A DNA stretch of 64,000 nt, from IMG/VR virus record IMGVR_UViG_3300012274_000057, positions 124,001-188,000 of that record. The stretch is one strand, 5' to 3'. Below the pieces are notes generated by a model. The model searched no databases. It worked only from the letters and a program-made list of their open reading frames with translations, and was not told the origin of the DNA. Shown piece by piece: positions 4,760 to 35,727 of the stretch; within the stretch, counting starts at the first letter, position 1; every line of letters starts with the position of its first letter. Origin of the DNA: an uncultured virus (IMG/VR IMGVR_UViG_3300012274_000057). Lineage: Duplodnaviria; Heunggongvirae; Uroviricota; Caudoviricetes. The position numbers and the translations under genes are program-made.

Positions 4760-5872
4760 ATGAAAAAAATTAAAAATCAAATAATGAAAATACTAGACGA
4801 ATCAGGAATAGAATGTGCTAATTCTATAGAATATGGTACATGCAATGGTGCGTTAATATGGTTTAAAGTATTAGATAGTAAGAGAAGATTATTACTAGTT
4901 AACGATAATGGAAAAACTGAACAAATAATTAGATATTGTGATGAAATGAATATGGTCATAATTAAAAATTTAGTAACAGGTCTCATTACTTCTACTGTGT
5001 ATAATAAACTTAATCTTAAAACATTTACATCTATTTATATTATATCAAATGATGAAAAAATTAGTGGTATGTTAAAAGAAGATAAAAACGTAGTATCACG
5101 TACTACCTATAAATATAATAGAAATAGAAAAGTTAAATGGTCACAACAAATTTCAAATTTTAATACAATTACAACTAAATATATTTATGAAGGTAATAAA
5201 TTAATAAAGGAAATCGAAGAAACCGAATATAAATTAGAAAAAGAAATTTGTAAAAATACTATTAAAGTAAGAATATTAGAATATTTCGAAGACACTGACA
5301 TTCTAAAAAGGGATTATACTACAGTAAATGACAAAATGAAATCAGAAATCTTATTTAATGAAAAAGGTGAAATTTTACATTTTCTAGATAATTATTATAT
5401 ACAGCGTGATTACTTATATAAAAATAATTTATTATCAGCAATTGTAGTATCGAACAAAGAAACAGGAAAAATATTACAAGTATCTGATTATGAATACAAT
5501 AAAAATGCTAATCAAATATGTGACAACGCACATATTGATGGACGTAACTATTGCAATTATTACGAATATGATGATCAAAATAGACGTACTATAATGATAT
5601 CATATGCAGAAGGTAAATGGCTTTCTACTATATATTATGAATATTATATTATCAATGGTAATAATATAATTAAACAAACTGAAAGAAGAGATAAAGGATT
5701 TATAAGTATAATCATATTATCTAATAATAAATATCTTAGCCAGTTAACACATTTCTTTGATAATATAAAACCATCAATGGTATTTACGGGTTATGATGAA
5801 AATGGAAGAGAGATACAAAGAATAGAGGATGGTAAAATTGAGATACTAGAATATAATACTATAAAACTATAA
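4760..5872 (+). CDS. Tyr-rich YD-like repeat protein
   Basis: recurrent YEYD/YDENGR-type beta-hairpin motifs. Confidence 0.6.
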   Translation: MKKIKNQIMKILDESGIECANSIEYGTCNGALIWFKVLDSKRRLLLVNDNGKTEQIIRYCDEMNMVIIKNLVTGLITSTVYNKLNLKTFTSIYIISNDEKISGMLKEDKNVVSRTTYKYNRNRKVKWSQQISNFNTITTKYIYEGNKLIKEIEETEYKLEKEICKNTIKVRILEYFEDTDILKRDYTTVNDKMKSEILFNEKGEILHFLDNYYIQRDYLYKNNLLSAIVVSNKETGKILQVSDYEYNKNANQICDNAHIDGRNYCNYYEYDDQNRRTIMISYAEGKWLSTIYYEYYIINGNNIIKQTERRDKGFISIIILSNNKYLSQLTHFFDNIKPSMVFTGYDENGREIQRIEDGKIEILEYNTIKL

Positions 5873-24980: not shown

Positions 24981-25922
24981 TTAACCAAATCTATTTTCTG
25001 AATTACATAAACATCTTCCGTTGCAATTACATGTGCCATTTCCTCTGGTGACGCATGAACATAGTTCATAAACATCACATGTACATCCAGACGTTGGGGT
25101 TCTACTCACACACATACAATCCGTATTGCATGTGCATGCTTCAATTGTTGTTCTACCAACACAATTACATACATTATCTGCATTACAAGTACAATCTGGA
25201 GAAAATGTTCTATCAACACATAAACAACCATGTTGTATACATATCGTCTCTGCTGTTCTGTCAACACAGGTACAACCAGTATCGGAATTACTAGTACATT
25301 CAGTGCCTGTCCTAGTGACACATAAGCAATTAGATGGACAATCACCGCCAGTTACTTCCCCTGAAGTTCTTGAGTTACAATCACAATTTGTTATTCCTAC
25401 TCTCGATACGCATGTACACAAAATATTAGAATCGCATGTGTCAACTGCTGTTCTTGATACACATGAACAAGTATTATCATTACAACTACAAGAATATCCT
25501 GTTCTAGCAACACATGAACATGAGACATTCTCAATACATTCTAATTCTGATGTTCTAGCCACACAACTACATATATTACTTGAACAAATATCGCCTGATG
25601 TTCTTGCAACACAATTACAAGATGTATGAGCATCACAGGAGAGTTCTGAAGTTCTAGTAACGCAATTACATGTAGTATCTACATGTGAATCACATGTTAA
25701 TGGCATTATATTATCCATAATATCCTCTATATCACCTATAGAGACAGTATTATCTTTTAATGCAAAATTATCTATATGAGCTATACAAGTTCCAAGGTTT
25801 CTTTGATTATTCATATCATCTAATAAATCTTTTAATTGACCTAATGAATTATATTGAGGAGGATTTGTATAACCCTTTTTTATTTGTAATAAGTTTTTTA
25901 ATCTTATTAAACTCTTATTCAT
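24981..25922 (-). CDS. Cys-rich repeat protein (about 14 CxC[V/N]xR[T/G] repeats); putative radical SAM substrate
   Basis: about 47 Cys by hand count, after a ~75-aa Cys-poor N-terminus; AGGAGG RBS; near two radical SAM genes. Confidence 0.75.
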   Translation of the reverse strand: MNKSLIRLKNLLQIKKGYTNPPQYNSLGQLKDLLDDMNNQRNLGTCIAHIDNFALKDNTVSIGDIEDIMDNIMPLTCDSHVDTTCNCVTRTSELSCDAHTSCNCVARTSGDICSSNICSCVARTSELECIENVSCSCVARTGYSCSCNDNTCSCVSRTAVDTCDSNILCTCVSRVGITNCDCNSRTSGEVTGGDCPSNCLCVTRTGTECTSNSDTGCTCVDRTAETICIQHGCLCVDRTFSPDCTCNADNVCNCVGRTTIEACTCNTDCMCVSRTPTSGCTCDVYELCSCVTRGNGTCNCNGRCLCNSENRFG

Positions 25923-25938
25923 AATTTATCCTCCTATA

Positions 25939-26712
25939 TTATTTATATAAAATAGTCCATCTAAAGCCACCAACAAAACTTCCTGAATTACCTACATATA
26001 TATTTGTAGCATCAGCTCTAATCCATGTTTCGCCTAAATATCCTTGAGGATTTTCAATAGGCATAATCATTATATTTGTTGGTGTAAATGATAATCCATG
26101 GGCTATAGTAACTTCATTATTACTTCCAGCAAAATTTGCTATACCACTTTTATCTGTTATTTTTTGACTTAATTTTTCTGCTATTGAAGTAGCAAAATTA
26201 GGATCTTCTCCTAATGCTTTAGCTAATTCAGATAATGTATTTAATGTCTCAGGCGAAGAATCAATTAAATTAGTAATTGCTGTTTCTACCCCTTCAGTTA
26301 TTTTAGCATCTGTTTCCGTTTTATTATAGTAATCAACTAAAACGTTTGCTATTATCTCTTCTACTGTTAATTGAGGTTTGTTTAGATTAGGTACACCTTT
26401 AAATGCAATAAAATTAAATACTGTATCTATACCTGTAGTTCCCCAATCATTTCCTAAAGACATTATAGCTGTACCTTCTGGATTTATTGTGTATGACGTT
26501 TCAGGAATATATTTACCAGCAATAAATACAAATAATAAATCATAATTAATATTAAAATTTTCTATACCAATATTTACACTAGGTGCAGTTCCTGTAATAG
26601 TAATATTATTTTTTCTATATCCTATAATACCAGTAGCAGCAGCTTTTTCAAATTGCATAAATAAATCATTGCTTATTTCGTGACCTGTTACTTTTCCTCC
26701 TATACTAGCCAT
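25939..26712 (-). CDS. tail fibre-like protein
   Basis: LIDSSPETLNTLSELAKALGEDPNFAT tail-fibre motif; YYNKTETD; late-type motif at 26739-26750 (-). Confidence 0.75.
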   Translation of the reverse strand: MASIGGKVTGHEISNDLFMQFEKAAATGIIGYRKNNITITGTAPSVNIGIENFNINYDLLFVFIAGKYIPETSYTINPEGTAIMSLGNDWGTTGIDTVFNFIAFKGVPNLNKPQLTVEEIIANVLVDYYNKTETDAKITEGVETAITNLIDSSPETLNTLSELAKALGEDPNFATSIAEKLSQKITDKSGIANFAGSNNEVTIAHGLSFTPTNIMIMPIENPQGYLGETWIRADATNIYVGNSGSFVGGFRWTILYK

Positions 26713-26754
26713 ATTATTTCACTCCTTCATTTATATATTATTATAATGTTAAAA

Positions 26755-26778
26755 TTGGGTAGGATTAATCCTACCCAA
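26755..26778 (-). terminator. hairpin terminator after the radical SAM pair
   Basis: TTGGGTAGGATTAATCCTACCCAA palindrome. Confidence 0.7.
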
Positions 26779-26797
26779 CTATACTTATTATATAATA

Positions 26798-27706
26798 TCA
26801 TATTTGTAATAGTTGTTGATAATAATCATATACTTTTTTTCTCATATTATATACTATGATATTACTCTCTTCTAATGTATGTTGTGTTTTGATAATTTTA
26901 TAATTTAAGTCTTTAGATGATGTATAATCATTACTATTTCTACCATAAGTTTCGCCTATAACTTTACCAGATGAATCTTTAACATATGTTCTGATATCAT
27001 TTTTAGGAGGTGGCACTAGAAAATCTGATATTTGTATACCTTCAAGTTTATTTGATATAATATCATGAGCTAAATCATGCATTTCAGACAGATATCTATT
27101 TAAATAATTTTCATCTACAGGCATTGTAGATTCTATAATACCTATATTCATTCTACACCTTATGCCTTTTTCATGTAGTTCATGAATACTTTCTCTTAAA
27201 AAAGCTATATTATACGGATGAGTAACAATATGCATATTGTAATTAATACCATTTCTATTTAACTTATCTATATTTTCTATTACTTTATCAAATGTATTCT
27301 CATGTGTATCCTTAAATACTCTAAGCTGATTGGCAATTTTATTACCGTCTAAACTTATAGAAAATACTATATTTTTATTCTCTTTAAGAAATTTAATGTG
27401 TTCATCTTCTAATATAGTGCCATTAGTTGTAATATATATTGTATTTACTATATTATTAAATGAAGTGTTTCTTTCGGTAAGTTCTATCCATTCATATGCA
27501 CTTTTAATATTATCAAAAGCTAACATTGGTTCTCCACCTAGAAATTCTATATTAAATCTTTTATTATGACCAGCGAAATTGTATATATTATTTATTAAGT
27601 CTTCGATTTCTTCTTTACAATATATAGATTTTTTATCTTTTTCGTAACAATATTTACAATTACAATTACATTCCTTGGTTACATGAATGACATAAGTTTC
27701 TATCAT
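26798..27706 (-). CDS. radical SAM protein without SPASM domain
   Basis: CNCNCKYC (CxxxCxxC), FLGGEPML, ITTNGT, SISLDG; no C-terminal Cys cluster. Confidence 0.85.
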   Translation of the reverse strand: MIETYVIHVTKECNCNCKYCYEKDKKSIYCKEEIEDLINNIYNFAGHNKRFNIEFLGGEPMLAFDNIKSAYEWIELTERNTSFNNIVNTIYITTNGTILEDEHIKFLKENKNIVFSISLDGNKIANQLRVFKDTHENTFDKVIENIDKLNRNGINYNMHIVTHPYNIAFLRESIHELHEKGIRCRMNIGIIESTMPVDENYLNRYLSEMHDLAHDIISNKLEGIQISDFLVPPPKNDIRTYVKDSSGKVIGETYGRNSNDYTSSKDLNYKIIKTQHTLEESNIIVYNMRKKVYDYYQQLLQI

Positions 27707-27719
27707 AATTATTCACCAC

Positions 27720-29258
27720 CTAGAGATTTTTTATTATTTGCGTAAGAGCTTCAGGTATCAATTCTGTTACACTAGTATACATATCTTCAATTTTATTATT
27801 TAAGAATTGCTTTTCTAAAATTAATCCAGTATATTCTTCGATAGTTAAACCTTCTTCTTCAGCACGTTCTAATATTTTATTATAAGTAGATTTAGCTAAT
27901 TTTATTGTAACAATATTATCTGATTTAATCTCAACTTTATTAGCTGATATCATATCTGCTTTGAGTGTAAACTTATTATTAGTCTCTTCGCTATCTATTA
28001 AATTAAATTGTGTACCTCTTGAATCACATAAACATGCTGGGTTGTCTGGATTATTTCCTATGGTTGAACTTATTTTATTATCTTTTCTATCTAATACTCC
28101 CAATTTATAATACTCCTCTACTTCTTTTTTTATATATGATTGTATTTCTTTTTCTATTTTACTCATTTGACATCTATACCCTCTAGATACAGATAATATA
28201 GAACCATTTTCACAAAGATTTTCTGCTATACATCTATAACAATGATAACAGTCACAATCTGGATCATCTATTTTACAACTTAAATCATTATTATCATACT
28301 CTACGAATAATAATCTTTTTTGATCGTCTATACCATCAAATATATTACCTATTATATATTGTCTTTCTGGATCATTAAAATATATATGATGACAAGGTGA
28401 AATATCTCCATTGGCAGTAATAGTAATAAAACTATTACCAGCTCCACAAGGTTTATTCGAAAAATCACAAGCATTAGATAAACTTCTGTCTAATGGTGCA
28501 TAATTTCTTATTTCATTTAAATTACCTTCCTTTTCTACTCTATTTAATATATAGTCTGCTATTTTGCCTAATTGTTCTTTATACATATTAACATCTTTTT
28601 GAGTCCAATCATTACTATGAATAGGCATAAACCATATATGTTTTAAACCCCAATCTTCTCTAAAGAATTTATAACTTTCAAATAAATATTTCATAGAAAA
28701 ATCATTTAAACATCCATGTATGCTTAAATTATCAGGTTTATTTTTGAAAAGATTTTTCCATTTAGGGATATTCTTTTCTACTATTTGAAAACTACCTTTT
28801 TTATTATGTGTTATTCTAAAAGCATCTTGAACTTTTTGAATACCATCTACAGATAATTGAACAGTAAGATTAACGTTATATATTCCTTTACTAAGTATTC
28901 TTTCTAATTCTGTTGTCAGTATGGTACCATTTGTTATCATATTCATAGACACGGGTATCTTTGTTATACTACTTATAGCACTAGCTTCATCGATTATAAA
29001 TTCCAATATCTCTGGCTCTAATGTTGGCTCTCCTCCAAATAATAATATATTTACCCGTTGCTCTCCAAATCCATTATCTATATTTTTTTTCGCATTGTCA
29101 AATAAGAATTTAATACCTTGATTAGCAACTTCATAAGACATTTTATTCTTATTATGTTTTTCGAAACAATATGAGCAAGCTAGATTACAATTTTCTGTAA
29201 CTAGAAAACTTGCTGCAGTGGGTTGTAAAATCTTTTTAATGTCGATTATTTTTATCAT
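27720..29258 (-). CDS. radical SAM/SPASM maturase with C-terminal extension
   Basis: CNLACSYC, FGGEPTL, ITNGT, LSVDG; SPASM-like PCGAG...ISPCHH...CDCYHCYRC...C. Confidence 0.9.
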   Translation of the reverse strand: MIKIIDIKKILQPTAASFLVTENCNLACSYCFEKHNKNKMSYEVANQGIKFLFDNAKKNIDNGFGEQRVNILLFGGEPTLEPEILEFIIDEASAISSITKIPVSMNMITNGTILTTELERILSKGIYNVNLTVQLSVDGIQKVQDAFRITHNKKGSFQIVEKNIPKWKNLFKNKPDNLSIHGCLNDFSMKYLFESYKFFREDWGLKHIWFMPIHSNDWTQKDVNMYKEQLGKIADYILNRVEKEGNLNEIRNYAPLDRSLSNACDFSNKPCGAGNSFITITANGDISPCHHIYFNDPERQYIIGNIFDGIDDQKRLLFVEYDNNDLSCKIDDPDCDCYHCYRCIAENLCENGSILSVSRGYRCQMSKIEKEIQSYIKKEVEEYYKLGVLDRKDNKISSTIGNNPDNPACLCDSRGTQFNLIDSEETNNKFTLKADMISANKVEIKSDNIVTIKLAKSTYNKILERAEEEGLTIEEYTGLILEKQFLNNKIEDMYTSVTELIPEALTQIIKNL

Positions 29259-29348: not shown

Positions 29349-30197
29349 TTAGCAAGTAGCAACCCAACTTGTTCCATTATAATATTTCATAATACCATTT
29401 TTCCAACCTGAATTATAAGGTTGAGGTACATTTGATGTTACCCATGAACTCCCATTCCATACATGGCAACCAGATCTATAAGTTGCATCCCAGCCTTCTT
29501 CTGCTTGTAAATCCGATTCATAACTTCCATTTAATGAAGACACTGCAAATTGAATACCATCATAAGCACCAGCAGCACTATTAACAGGAAAGTCATATCG
29601 ATTACTTACAACAGTACTTTGATAACTCCAATTGGCATTCCATGTTCCAGTAGAATGATTATAATATCTAGCATATACTTTATATCCAGTTGCTCCAGAT
29701 GCTCCAGTAAAGGTAACTCTCATTTCTTCTCCTTTATTGAATAATCCTGAAACAGATACGTTTGATGGTTTGTTTGGAATTGTTTGAATTTGATCTAATG
29801 TAACAGTTTTTCCTACACTCATCGTTCCTATCCAAACACCTGTATAAGTAATTTCTATAGCAAATGTTGCTGCTAGATCTACTGAACGAGATCCATCTGA
29901 ATTATGAGGCACTGTAGCTGTTCTAGTAACTAATACATTTTGCCAAATTTGACTATCATCATTTCTATCTGGAACAGATTTACTAAAATTTTGCGTACTT
30001 CCATTTATTGTGGTTGTTCCATTTTTTACTAATCCCCATGTACTTACAGAACTACTTTCCATTATTACTGAAATTGTTACAGAGGATGAATTAGTAGCTT
30101 GATTTGGAGTTGATGACCATTGAATACCTAATCTAACATTATATCTCTCTAAAGCAGAACCACCATAATACCCACTCCAAAATATTCCACTAGCCAT
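29349..30197 (-). CDS. tail/receptor-binding-like protein (beta-rich N-domain plus FN3-like domain)
   Basis: QATNSSSVT...TVPHNSDGSRSV...VTLDQI resembles Firmicute phage tail proteins; PNKPSNVSVS FN3-like start; YNGTSW end. Confidence 0.65.
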   Translation of the reverse strand: MASGIFWSGYYGGSALERYNVRLGIQWSSTPNQATNSSSVTISVIMESSSVSTWGLVKNGTTTINGSTQNFSKSVPDRNDDSQIWQNVLVTRTATVPHNSDGSRSVDLAATFAIEITYTGVWIGTMSVGKTVTLDQIQTIPNKPSNVSVSGLFNKGEEMRVTFTGASGATGYKVYARYYNHSTGTWNANWSYQSTVVSNRYDFPVNSAAGAYDGIQFAVSSLNGSYESDLQAEEGWDATYRSGCHVWNGSSWVTSNVPQPYNSGWKNGIMKYYNGTSWVATC

Positions 30198-31842: not shown

Positions 31843-31876
31843 AATAGAGTGTATATAATATTATATACACTCTATT
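31843..31876 (-). terminator. hairpin terminator
   Basis: AATAGAGTGTATATAATATTATATACACTCTATT palindrome. Confidence 0.7.
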
Positions 31877-31878
31877 AT

Positions 31879-32604
31879 TTATCTTATAGAATTTAATAGT
31901 TTTATCAAAAATGTCATATCTGTCCGTTTAACTATTTCTGATGTACTCTTCTTTGTAGGTAAAGTTCCTCTTATAAATTGAGTTAATGGTATCATTGCAT
32001 CTATAAATTCATTATAATAATTTATATGCCAGATACAGGTGGAATCTATACCTACAAAAGAAAATGCTGTTAAATACTTATATATCCTAAATTCATTTAT
32101 TTTTTGTCTAAGTGAGATTACATCGTTTATAGTAATGTGTGTTTGTTCACCTATCTTCTTTTCTTGCCATGTAAAATTAGCTGGTCTAGGTTTTTGATCC
32201 TGTTGAATATTACACTGACATGCTATTTGACACATATCTTGACAATAGCTTTGACAAGTAGTTAAACATGCTTTTTCACATGTAAATTGACATAACATTT
32301 GACAATTTTCTTGGCAATTTAATTCACAACCAGTTTGACAAGCCGTTTGACAAACAGTTTGGCAAGTTTGACATCCTTGTCGTTCACATTGGCATACTGA
32401 CAAACATGTTGCTAAGCATGCTTCATTTACTAATTGACAAGCATTTTCACATTGATTGCATTCTGCCTCTATGTCCATACACATACATGTATTCATACAA
32501 GCATCTGAACAACTGCTATTTGCTAAAGTTACGTTATTAGAATCATTCAAGAAGTCAGGAATAGTTATTTCAGTACCTTTTAAAAAATCGCTCATTTCGA
32601 TCAC
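31879..32604 (-). CDS. Cxxx-repeat Cys-rich protein fused to a C-terminal globular domain; putative radical SAM substrate (start probably ATG 32595)
   Basis: 26 Cys in about 105 aa, including 12 consecutive Cxxx units; its RBS overlaps the last codons of the radical SAM gene. Confidence 0.8.
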   Translation of the reverse strand: MIEMSDFLKGTEITIPDFLNDSNNVTLANSSCSDACMNTCMCMDIEAECNQCENACQLVNEACLATCLSVCQCERQGCQTCQTVCQTACQTGCELNCQENCQMLCQFTCEKACLTTCQSYCQDMCQIACQCNIQQDQKPRPANFTWQEKKIGEQTHITINDVISLRQKINEFRIYKYLTAFSFVGIDSTCIWHINYYNEFIDAMIPLTQFIRGTLPTKKSTSEIVKRTDMTFLIKLLNSIR

Positions 32605-33857
32605 CTCCTGTTAAATTGAGTTTTAAATAATTCATTTGACTCACCTGCTAACGTATTCATTATATTTATCGATGTATCTAAGCATATATTATAAAATTTA
32701 CATAATATTTCTGGAACTATTGTTAAATCGCCACAGGAAAAATAATTGTTTATAGAGCAATACCCATCACATATATTATGGAGTCTGCATGTCTTACACC
32801 TTTTTGAATCAGAACACCTGACTTTTTTTACATCAAACGAGTTTATAATTTCCCATCTTTTATCATTATAGATTTCAGTGAATAAATTACCTATTATAAA
32901 TTTATCTCCATTTTCTCTGTTTCCTACCATTTCTTGGCAAGAATATATTTCTCCATCGGGACCTATTGATGCAAATCTGTTAGAACCTAATCCACATCTA
33001 CCATATGCAGGTGCATCTGTAGCATTTCTAAACGATGTAGTTTCATTAAATCTATTAATTTTTTTTATATTACCAAATGCATAATCAAATTGCGAAATGG
33101 ATATATCTCTACCTTCTCTTATTAATTCTATATACCAATTAGCAACTTCATTGATCGCTGTTACTAAATCATTAACCTCTTGATTAGTCCATTTGGCAAA
33201 TACATTAACAATAAAAAATATATTATTATATCCTCTTTCTATAGCAAATTTACAGTTATGCAATAATTGCTTACAATTATCATGATCTAATGTCATTCTA
33301 AAAGTCATATTAGGATTTAATTTTAGAGCTTTAGGGATATTATTTATTATTAAATCAAATGATGATTTTCCATTATGAAGAGGTCTATTTAAATCTTGTG
33401 TAGGTTTATCTCCATCAATACTAATCATAATTCCAATATTATTATCTTTTATGAATTGTAGCCTCTCTTCATTCAATAATGTACCATTGGTCGTCATAGA
33501 TAATTGAAAATTATCATTACATTGCTCTCTAATATATTTAGTCAATGGTACAATTATTTCATCCCATTTGAGCATAGGTTCTCCACCAAAGAAATTGATA
33601 CTAGGAATATCGCCTTGTATTTTAGAATTTTCTATAATAAAATCTACAGCTCTTTTTGCAGTATCATAAGACATTTCTTTAGCATATTGATCTATAAAAC
33701 AATACTTACATTTAAGATTACATTTTTGTGTAACATTGAGAAATATAGAAGTTATTAATGGTAATTCTCCATCTTTCCATATTTGTTCTACTGTTCTAAA
33801 ATTATTATTTTCACATTGTTGATTTATACATTGTTCACAATTCATATTAATTACCAC
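32601..33857 (-). CDS. radical SAM/SPASM peptide or protein maturase
   Basis: CNLKCKYC, FFGGEPML, MTTNGT, ISIDG; SPASM RCGLG...YSCQE...CKTCRLHNICDGYC...C. Confidence 0.92.
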   Translation of the reverse strand: MVINMNCEQCINQQCENNNFRTVEQIWKDGELPLITSIFLNVTQKCNLKCKYCFIDQYAKEMSYDTAKRAVDFIIENSKIQGDIPSINFFGGEPMLKWDEIIVPLTKYIREQCNDNFQLSMTTNGTLLNEERLQFIKDNNIGIMISIDGDKPTQDLNRPLHNGKSSFDLIINNIPKALKLNPNMTFRMTLDHDNCKQLLHNCKFAIERGYNNIFFIVNVFAKWTNQEVNDLVTAINEVANWYIELIREGRDISISQFDYAFGNIKKINRFNETTSFRNATDAPAYGRCGLGSNRFASIGPDGEIYSCQEMVGNRENGDKFIIGNLFTEIYNDKRWEIINSFDVKKVRCSDSKRCKTCRLHNICDGYCSINNYFSCGDLTIVPEILCKFYNICLDTSINIMNTLAGESNELFKTQFNRR

Positions 33858-33907
33858 CTTTAAAAAATAATTAAAAAACCCATTACGAGTTTTTTAATTA
33901 TTATATT

Positions 33908-35113
33908 TTATGAGAAATAAGCACCACCAAGTGTAATCCATCCAGAAGTTGTTTTTAATTTTATTACTTTATTTATACTATCTATCCACAACTCATTTTC
34001 TAAAGCATTAACAGGTTCCATAGTCTGAATGTAATATGTCGGTTTCTTAGATAGCATGGCATCAACTTCAGATTTTGTATATACCATATTAGTATCTACC
34101 TTAGAAGCTATCTGTTGGATTATAGTGCTTGACATATTCGGATTACTTGCTAACATATTAGAAAGTTGGGTCAAAGTAGCTAAATCTGTTGGAGAAGCAT
34201 TGATTATACTTTGAATTAAATCTTGAGTTTCTTGTTTTGTATAAGTATTATCTCCATCAGCCTTTGATGTAAAGTAAGTTATTTGATCTTCGGTAACAAA
34301 TTTGTTATACATATCTTGAACTATACTCTCTGCTCTGATAGCTATATCATCAGCAAGTTTTATTGATGTTATAGATTTATCTGCATAATTTTTGGTTGTA
34401 AGAACTGTATTGGCGTTTAAATCATAAAATCTAGTATAAAAAAATATAAATAATGCAAACTCTCCTTGATTTAGGGCATCATTTGGGTTTTTAATTACTA
34501 AATCATCGCCTTTTACTTCATACTTTCCACTAAAATTATAGCCTCTAACAATTACAGCCATCTTATCTTGAGCCAAATCATAATTAGCTATCGGATATGG
34601 TATTTTTATTATCATCTGTTTATCTCTAGTAGCATGTACATAAATAGATTTACTAGCTGTAACTGCTATTTTATCAATAGCCTCTAAGGATTCTGCTAAT
34701 GTACTTCCATCTTCCATAATTACAACACTTGATAATGTCGTAGGAGCGATACTCTGCTCCATTGCAGCATAAAGTCCTTTTGTAGAATAAGTACTTTGTA
34801 AGAACTCATCTGAAGAGAATGCTGTTGTTAAGAAATCTTGTTGATCTTGTATAGTAAGCCATATTAAACCATCGTGCTTGTATACATTACCAGTTTCTTT
34901 AACATAATAAACTTTAGTCATTGACGTATATTGTAATAGGTCTTTATCAGCTTCGGTTGATAGATATATTATTTCATTTAATATTATACGTTGTTCATCT
35001 GATAAATCAAAAAAAGACTCTTTTGTATCAGTGCAATATATTATTTGATTTGTAAATAATCGAGTATTTCCTAACATATCTCGTATTATTTCTTTATAAC
35101 TAACAAATGACAT
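33908..35113 (-). CDS. tail fibre-like protein, paralog of 30213-31793
   Basis: QIIYCTDTKE vs QIIECTDTNE; YTKxE repeats; SPTDLATLTQLS; ENELWID; late-type motif at 35139-35150 (-). Confidence 0.7.
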   Translation of the reverse strand: MSFVSYKEIIRDMLGNTRLFTNQIIYCTDTKESFFDLSDEQRIILNEIIYLSTEADKDLLQYTSMTKVYYVKETGNVYKHDGLIWLTIQDQQDFLTTAFSSDEFLQSTYSTKGLYAAMEQSIAPTTLSSVVIMEDGSTLAESLEAIDKIAVTASKSIYVHATRDKQMIIKIPYPIANYDLAQDKMAVIVRGYNFSGKYEVKGDDLVIKNPNDALNQGEFALFIFFYTRFYDLNANTVLTTKNYADKSITSIKLADDIAIRAESIVQDMYNKFVTEDQITYFTSKADGDNTYTKQETQDLIQSIINASPTDLATLTQLSNMLASNPNMSSTIIQQIASKVDTNMVYTKSEVDAMLSKKPTYYIQTMEPVNALENELWIDSINKVIKLKTTSGWITLGGAYFS

Positions 35114-35208
35114 ATTAAATCCTCCCTTATAAATTAATTAATATTATGTTATCTTTATGGATAGATACAAAGAATAACACTTCTTGAATTAACAAGAAGT
35201 GTTATATT

Positions 35209-35727
35209 TTAATCTAGCATATCATCCCAACTAGGAATCTTTTTTTCTAATTCAGCTTTTAGAGTATTTAATGATGTTTTGAATACAAAATAAGAGACTA
35301 TACTATTTTCTGCATAAATTGGGATTAAGTCCCCATCTGCTTCATGCATAGTATTTGCTTCTTCCATTGTTGATACTATATTAGCAAATACTTTAAGCCA
35401 TTTATCATCAAACCATATATAACCCGAACCAGTATTATATAATACATATATAGCACCTTCTTCTCCTACATCGGGTAAAGAATATACTAATTGTGCACTA
35501 TTAACATCGTCTTGCAGTGCTAAAGCTTTTAATTCTTTATTTGAATTAATTATATATGCTTTATTTGAACCATTATCAGTGGTAACACCTATGACTTGAT
35601 TAATATAAGATGTTGGACTATTTGCATATGCAATTGCTTCACTCATAGTATTAAAAACTGTATCGACATCTAAGGGACCACTAAATAATCTCTTATAACT
35701 TAAAACCATTGAAGTACTTGTTGCCAT
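35209..35727 (-). CDS. probable tail-associated protein
   Basis: located in the tail block; YKRLFSGPLD and LPDVGEEGAIY motifs. Confidence 0.55.
   Translation of the reverse strand: MATSTSMVLSYKRLFSGPLDVDTVFNTMSEAIAYANSPTSYINQVIGVTTDNGSNKAYIINSNKELKALALQDDVNSAQLVYSLPDVGEEGAIYVLYNTGSGYIWFDDKWLKVFANIVSTMEEANTMHEADGDLIPIYAENSIVSYFVFKTSLNTLKAELEKKIPSWDDMLD

Follow-up and report, generated by a model that had tools for sequence, protein, structure and literature searches.

In the 64,000-nucleotide stretch of viral DNA analysed here (hereafter the window), which lies within a virus record of 230,112 bases with 26.6% G+C, a gene of the tail-fibre region encodes a two-part protein that likely caps the tip of a fibre, and whose many cysteines are probably cross-linked by the radical SAM enzyme encoded upstream; we put the probability of this reading at a little below 0.6. 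The phage is a 230-kb AR9-like one, with enzyme and target placed among tail-fibre genes (Table 1). The product of 40305-41252 matches virion proteins of the Bacillus jumbo phages AR9 and PBS1, the products of 33908-35113, 29349-30197 and 25939-26712 match tail and tail-fibre PHROGs, and the three radical SAM genes of the genome as well as both long Cys-rich open reading frames (ORFs) all lie in the tail-fibre block. A second system was observed on the minus strand at 24981-29258. It comprises the other two radical SAM genes and a gene for a tail fibre, together with a Cys-rich protein of 313 aa that has 47 Cys in CxC..RT repeats and an ENRFG end fitting the docking motif described below.

Table 1. 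Features of the fibre-enzyme-target locus, in window positions
Feature	Position	Strand	Remarks
Tail-fibre-like protein, 401 aa	33908..35113	minus	phrog_23820 tail fibre, E 1.7e-14; ends GAYFS (33911-33925)
Radical SAM/SPASM enzyme, 418 aa	32601..33857	minus	CxxxCxxC at 46-53; seven SPASM-type Cys
AGGAGG ribosome-binding site	32604..32609	minus	in final codons of the radical SAM gene
Target gene, Cys tract and predicted cap domain	31879..32595	minus	238 aa from ATG; leader-like start
Leader-like motif I-x-I-P-x-x-L	32548..32568	minus	common to Cys-tract relatives
Cys tract, 26 Cys	32212..32511	minus	residues 32-131; C-[Q/E]-x-x units
Twelve consecutive Cxxx units	32218..32364	minus	C81-C129
End domain, 103 aa	31879..32190	minus	three internal repeats, each closing in helix; predicted tail-tip cap/adaptor
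15-bp hairpin	31843..31876		just 3' of target stop codon; found on plus-strand listing, consensus match

The target gene and its radical SAM enzyme

The target ORF runs on the minus strand from 32604 to 31879, where the plus strand is full of stops, and can be read from a GTG at 32604 (241 aa) or from an ATG at 32595 (238 aa). As a model's earlier reading of the letters (the sequence-only reading) had claimed, AGGAGG overlaps the end of the radical SAM/SPASM gene, forming its last two codons before the stop at 32603-32601. Since this site lies 8 nt before the ATG and itself overlaps the GTG, the product is probably the one of 238 aa; the database protein P0002 likewise has 238 aa. The gene is not an assembly artefact, because an identical protein is encoded on another viral contig and a contig of run X2, from the same study as the possible source run, spans 31847-35300 without gaps.

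The same reading had counted 26 Cys, which is right for the N-terminal tract and not for the whole protein, where one more Cys in the end domain brings the number to 27. Its run of twelve Cxxx units is present as described, and its ordinary domain of about 105 aa, starting PRPANFTW, measures 103 aa. When the N-terminal 133 residues were shuffled 20,000 times, no shuffle had more than seven consecutive Cxxx units; the tract contains one CxxxD and two CxxxE among its 26 Cys. The proposed "Cys helix" found no support, as the tract folds at low confidence only, with a pLDDT mostly under 50 in the full-length model. The leader-like motif, which is probably the recognition site of the enzyme, occurs in 10 of 21 Cys tracts by one pattern, two of them with three copies; three or more tandem copies were seen in the longest tracts (P0125, P0131 and locus L028 at 4975-5200). 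The hairpin behind the target gene is a possible terminator of the enzyme-target pair, and no RNA holder was listed. Together with another long hairpin at 35174-35205, it brackets the fibre-enzyme-target block.

The enzyme carries its CxxxCxxC motif at Cys 46, 50 and 53 and matches PF04055 with 65.5 bits (cut-off 29.5). Seven further Cys (288, 307, 354, 357, 363, 367 and 386) form what we take to be the SPASM pattern, matched by eye; the enzyme does not score with PF13186 (SPASM) itself at E 0.01. Of the family models, that of the ranthipeptide maturase PapB (NF047865, E 6.6e-68) scores highest, with 229.4 bits against a cut-off of 340, and TIGR04115 gives 116.6 bits against 350; as both scores are below cut-off, the enzyme is a member of neither family. 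A match to the DNA methyltransferase model NF010253 (16 bits against 244) was rejected as chance. There is no room for an N-terminal RRE, since only 45 residues precede the motif, and 15-38 do so in the 14 other relatives with the motif located. At the N-terminus an extra CxxCxxxxC (Cys 7, 10 and 15; minus strand, 33813-33839) was noticed; a similar short Cys-bearing extension exists in L036 and none in most enzyme relatives.

A two-row alignment of the SPASM half of the enzyme was used to search viral contigs and gave 31 viral loci with 18 distinct enzymes of 33-99% mutual identity, two of them being the query rows. All 18 adjoin a Cys tract within blocks of structural genes. In 16 the enzyme is followed by a gene that opens with the tract, fused to FN3, Ig-like or cap domains, and the enzyme stop and the next start mostly overlap in these loci. 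In L028 the tract appears in the next gene once TAG is read as Gln, and in L064 it forms the C-terminal part of the Tal protein encoded just before the enzyme. The coupling of enzyme and target gene recurs in unrelated phages, in the Dit-Tal modules of siphophages and the baseplate modules of myophages. Tract-free domain genes had an enzyme in the fetched flanks in 0 of 23 and 0 of 17 cases, some of these flanks being short (L029, L031, L033). From 18 paired enzymes of 18, and none near the 40 tract-free genes, it follows that enzyme and tract travel as a cassette inserted into tail modules. As to the link between enzyme and end domain, only L008 and L028 test it in a non-circular way, because four such loci were found through the enzyme.

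These counts bear on the idea, which we consider unlikely, that the tract is not cross-linked and its Cys instead ligate metals or Fe-S clusters or pair as disulfides, the enzyme having another substrate or loading the clusters. Cys-rich proteins usually bind metal cofactors, even modified CrpA has been suggested as a metal binder in the available part of PMC13692751, and the low-confidence helices of the model could line a metal core. However, the strict pairing of enzyme with tract argues against it, and so does the extension of Gln/Glu one unit past the last Cys, which metal ligation by Cys does not need. A further reading, to which we give a very small chance, takes the target as a RiPP precursor: the stapled tract would be released from its carrier and act as a free peptide directed at host or competitors. 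The leader-like motif and the PapB-like enzyme would suit it, as would a stand-alone 133-aa Cxxx protein with 23 Cys in L041 (5379-5780), which lies among baseplate genes besides the fused target that follows the enzyme gene; yet nearly all loci have the tract in fusion with tail-module domains, and neither protease nor exporter was found among the 16 neighbouring window ORFs scanned.

Several other observations concern these loci. The enzyme and target of L028 (3827-6330) have 3 and 17 recoded TAG codons, the Gln-rich tract being full of them. L064 (4324-8528) encodes a 959-aa tail protein with a coiled-coil-like stretch and then a long Asp/Glu-rich CxxC tract. In L008 (8817-9704) an unrelated phage-like N-terminus is joined to the SPASM half only, which is either a misassembly or a deletion. 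The myophage targets of L035, L041 and L042 match phrog_10993, "Hoc-like head decoration", yet stand behind baseplate and tail-fibre genes. Phage Phass-1 (L004, 7956-9149) has a related enzyme gene with an in-frame stop under table 11, beside suppressor tRNAs and outside any evident tail module. The best GenBank-phage matches of the enzyme were set aside as SCIFF-type host maturases or as lying outside tail modules. In the enzyme tree the window enzyme is placed near L036, at a position without starred support.

The end domain and its predicted fibre partner

The end domain is a single chain of three repeats: its thirds, aligned pairwise by hhalign, gave probabilities of 95, 64 and 29, and its model has three helices at a pLDDT of 89. 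It has no Pfam match. It matches the last 100 positions of phrog_37329 (E 1.2e-5) and is homologous to this type over its full length, at the C-terminus; it also matches the C-terminus of an FN3 protein encoded after the tail fibre genes in the Bacillus phages PBC2 and Basilisk, with 25% identity over 105 aa to the Basilisk gp52 domain (pairwise E 1e-8). The sequence-only reading had likened the domain to a tail-protein module of Firmicute phages and had made its proposal depend on homology to phage structural proteins; phrog_37329 and the FN3 proteins Basilisk gp52 and PBC2 gp199 supply that homology and bear the comparison out. It had also suggested structure and profile searches with this domain alone, of which Foldseek returned no PDB match and the profile search no solved relative. 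Among the best VIA matches were a designed filament (Z 6.5) and the Beclin BARA domain (Z 6.0), which were rejected as relatives with Z within the range of common helical arrangements, and the BFVD matches were uncharacterised phage proteins only (TM 0.80, E 0.011).

A search of 1.84 billion representatives gave 16 matches, 14 of them genuine, from which a 14-row profile was built; P0008 and P0013 were judged chance and left out of the alignment. The end domain scores 126 bits against this profile, of which the target is itself a row. The profile found 141 proteins, 120 of them listed. The domain sits at the C-terminus, at most 5 residues from the end, in all 137 proteins scored (2 of 139 being unscored), and among the loci L008 is the sole exception to this placement. 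A Cys tract is present in 9 of the 137 (7 distinct) and the others have FN3, Ig-like or other arms; the closest relative of the same architecture is P0003, with 41% identity in the domain. In a domain tree made by a quick method with 43 rows, at least three label changes are needed for the Cys tract, which hints at repeated fusion or loss. No paralogue of the domain was found elsewhere in its own genome. In some phages it was observed with peptidase arms (P0056, P0113, P0139 (PF00112) and L033 at 730-2355, the last subtilisin-like in sequence by eye).

Loci of the family were drawn from viral contigs, genomes and metagenomes. The relatives are encoded directly behind Tal or minor-tail genes, in the order TMP-Dit-Tal-[domain gene], as confirmed by PHROG labels on the neighbours tested, and the enzyme gene, where present, stands as an insert between the Tal gene and the domain gene (L036, L046, L047, L050). 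Regarding the gene upstream, we scored the C-terminal pattern [FW][GASK] in the nearest non-rSAM ORF of at least 200 aa. Of the 29 discovery loci 25 had this end, compared with 3 of 162 other ORFs; of the 17 held-out loci, fetched after the motif idea had been written down, 11 had it, compared with 3 of 67 other ORFs. One held-out locus (L085) is closely related to the discovery loci. The misses (4/29 and 6/17) include the Cys-tract loci L008, L028 and L046, and of the six held-out ones five lack a long tail gene upstream, the sixth being the counter-example L099. At enzyme loci whose target has no end domain the motif occurred in 0 of 10. Moreover, motif and domain occur together in the cultured phages Basilisk, Sophrita and PBC2, and in the domain-free PBC4, Tsamsa, Kirov and Sundance the motif was found in 0 of 16 tail-module genes of at least 200 aa, with one 165-aa gene of Kirov fitting the pattern. 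These comparisons of sequences suggest that [F/W]-[G/A/S/K]-stop is likely a docking motif for a fibre-tip cap.

In the window, the enzyme gene likewise lies between the domain gene and the fibre gene, whose product ends in accord with the motif and is the predicted docking partner of the cap domain. Four of the 136 long ORFs of this genome fit the motif, one of them being the other Cys-rich protein; the 24981-25922 product also ends FG. The predicted partner, the 33908-35113 product, is a jumbo-phage fibre, unlike the Tal partners elsewhere, and for its C-terminal region no relatives were found; fibre end and domain gene could have been inherited as one block. A complex prediction with three copies of fibre residues 342-401 and the end domain scored 0.14 against a mark of 0.32 and counts neither for nor against the pairing.

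The gene context points to a virion location of the target. The same context would equally fit an assembly chaperone that binds the fibre C-terminus and is then released, the modified tract never appearing on the virion surface, as would the C-terminal motif. T4 gp38 is cited as a chaperone of this kind in the available part of PMC12032242, and no family member was found in any virion proteome located. We nevertheless regard a chaperone as improbable: the variable FN3, Ig-like and peptidase arms of the domain are typical of displayed proteins, the L064 tract belongs to Tal itself, and gp52 differs between Basilisk-like phages of different selectivity (PMC6145125, available part).

The probable cross-linking pattern and a proposed mechanism

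In the Cxxx units of 21 tracts, Gln or Glu directly follows Cys in 197 of 256. Over 22 tracts, which are related and hence not independent, Q/E follows 304 of 379 Cys that have another Cys 3-4 residues upstream against 31 of 148 that have none; position +5 from the last Cys is Q/E in 19 of the 22 tracts and position +1 from the first Cys in 1 of them, with a background of 142/1219 (11.6%). Among the three tracts lacking Q/E at that +5 position is the window's own, which ends CxC and has Gln at +5 of its next-to-last Cys. Across its 26 Cys the +5 residues include 13 Gln and 3 Glu.

The asymmetry between +5 and +1 would be expected if each donor Cys were joined to an acceptor downstream of it, and it makes thioethers from Cys to downstream Gln/Glu likely in the tract. 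According to the available part of PMC12373016, PapB requires an acceptor C-terminal of the donor Cys, from i+1 to i+7, and in PMC13692751, as far as available, CrpC staples a large Cys-repeat protein, CrpA, in which the donor Cys precedes the acceptor. Against the register stands the acceptor range of PapB, which cross-links acidic acceptors only (PMC12373016, same part), whereas the +5 positions in the window tract are mostly Gln.

Some other chemistry on the tract, such as links from Cys to the +1 Gln/Glu, Cys-Cys links, alpha-carbon (sactionine) links or interchain links, has in our view a small chance of being the right one. The frequent Q/E at +1 of the Cxxx units would fit it, and so would the i+1 acceptors that PapB tolerates, Gln not being shown as a PapB acceptor in that part of PMC12373016; but neither a +1 rule nor a Cys-Cys rule predicts the counts at the first and the last Cys.

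For the cross-linked fibre cap we propose the following course. Late in infection the RRE-less enzyme would recognise the target, probably through I-x-I-P-x-x-L, and form thioethers along the tract, a step in which we have good confidence. Each Cys would be joined to the Gln/Glu after the next Cys (C-x4-Q/E, or C-x3-Q/E in CxxC steps), yielding overlapping rings and a stiff, reductant-proof rod; this geometry we hold only slightly better than even. Since Tal and tail fibres are trimers, the three repeats of the end domain may grip three C-termini, and we find it fairly probable that these would be the ..[F/W]-[G/A/S/K]-COOH ends of a fibre trimer, which in the window is the 33908-35113 product. 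In this arrangement the stapled rod would replace the FN3/Ig arms displayed by most family members and would most likely make the first contact with the host surface. More tentative, and in our estimate rather doubtful in its full extent, is the general picture that phages of anaerobic Firmicutes may carry a mobile cassette of RRE-less enzyme and C-[Q/E]-x-x ladder, whose product would be a poly-thioether Cys-Gln rod mounted on the tail tip by a pseudo-threefold cap domain reading a two-residue C-terminal address, that is, a stapled receptor-contact appendage.

Relation to known systems

In the literature searched, subscription papers and bioRxiv supplements being outside it, no description of phage structural proteins cross-linked by a radical SAM enzyme was found. 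Term searches gave nothing relevant in the available parts of PMC7824862, PMC11118758 and PMC12801897, nor in that of the Tsamsa proteome paper (PMC3903500), Tsamsa having no domain gene. The co-occurrence of enzyme and tract may already have been noted, because PF27846 clusters contain many viral members. If the present reading is true, phages build part of their adsorption apparatus post-translationally, enzymology gains access to a radical SAM subfamily that lacks an RRE and probably uses Gln acceptors, and a domain that is common in Firmicute tail modules, though unannotated, acquires a function and a partner rule, the C-terminal [F/W]-[G/A/S/K], which can be tested in existing cultured phages.

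Among described systems, CrpC/CrpA of Methanococcus voltae is similar in that a radical SAM/SPASM enzyme adjoins a large Cys-repeat protein, the Cys comes before the acceptor, and the product is a modified protein and no short peptide (PMC13692751, available part). It differs in that CrpC has an RRE and belongs to TIGR04463, with which the window enzyme scores 73 bits against 525, and CrpA has a 17-residue repeat and, in the part of PMC13692751 available, no virion domain; the word "phage" is absent from the text of that paper and from three supplementary files. PapB/PapA is the best-scoring family, with repeated four-residue Cys motifs and a donor Cys N-terminal of the acceptor (PMC12373016, available part); unlike it, the window enzyme stays under the 340-bit cut-off and has no RRE, and the window target has a single CxxxD, Gln-rich acceptor positions and a fusion to a tail-module domain.

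The sequence-only reading had placed the pair near the CXXX-repeat systems (TIGR04115; TIGR04114/PF27846, TIGR04117). What holds of this is the four-residue spacing of the Cys in a gene that adjoins a radical SAM gene; the family scores do not support it, as the target reaches 9.1 bits with TIGR04117 against a cut-off of 50 and the enzyme also falls short with TIGR04115 (117/350). Scans of the target showed no TIGR04114 or PF27846 row, where biased composition may be filtered and the presence of the models in the libraries is unconfirmed. An Atlas cluster that is 67% viral and has PF27846 on 42% of its members scores 0.88 and serves as a lead only. Unlike these systems, the window pair has no helper gene between enzyme and target and has a fused cap domain.

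As to the domain, Basilisk gp52 and PBC2 gp199 (phrog_37329) share the homologous C-terminal domain and lie behind a fibre gene ending AVFG, but have FN3 arms in place of the Cys tract and no enzyme; their function is speculated only, gp52 being proposed as a structural tail protein in the available part of PMC6145125. A functional analogue would be the Gp38 adhesin of T2/T6-like phages. Its gene follows the fibre gene, and the monomeric product combines a tip-attachment domain with a variable displayed part; this attachment domain is N-terminal and not C-terminal as in the window target, and no enzymatic modification of Gp38 is described (PMC12032242, available part). The Gp38 attachment domain is not among the listed sequence or fold matches of the end domain; by analogy, the cap may work like this monomeric adhesin. 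Thioether stapling of the RiPP type has been described in peptides and in a small number of cellular proteins, QhpC and CrpA (PMC13692751, available part). The chemistry considered here belongs to a known kind, unlike its substrate and setting; the present analysis adds the C-terminal partner motif with its controls and the donor-acceptor register.
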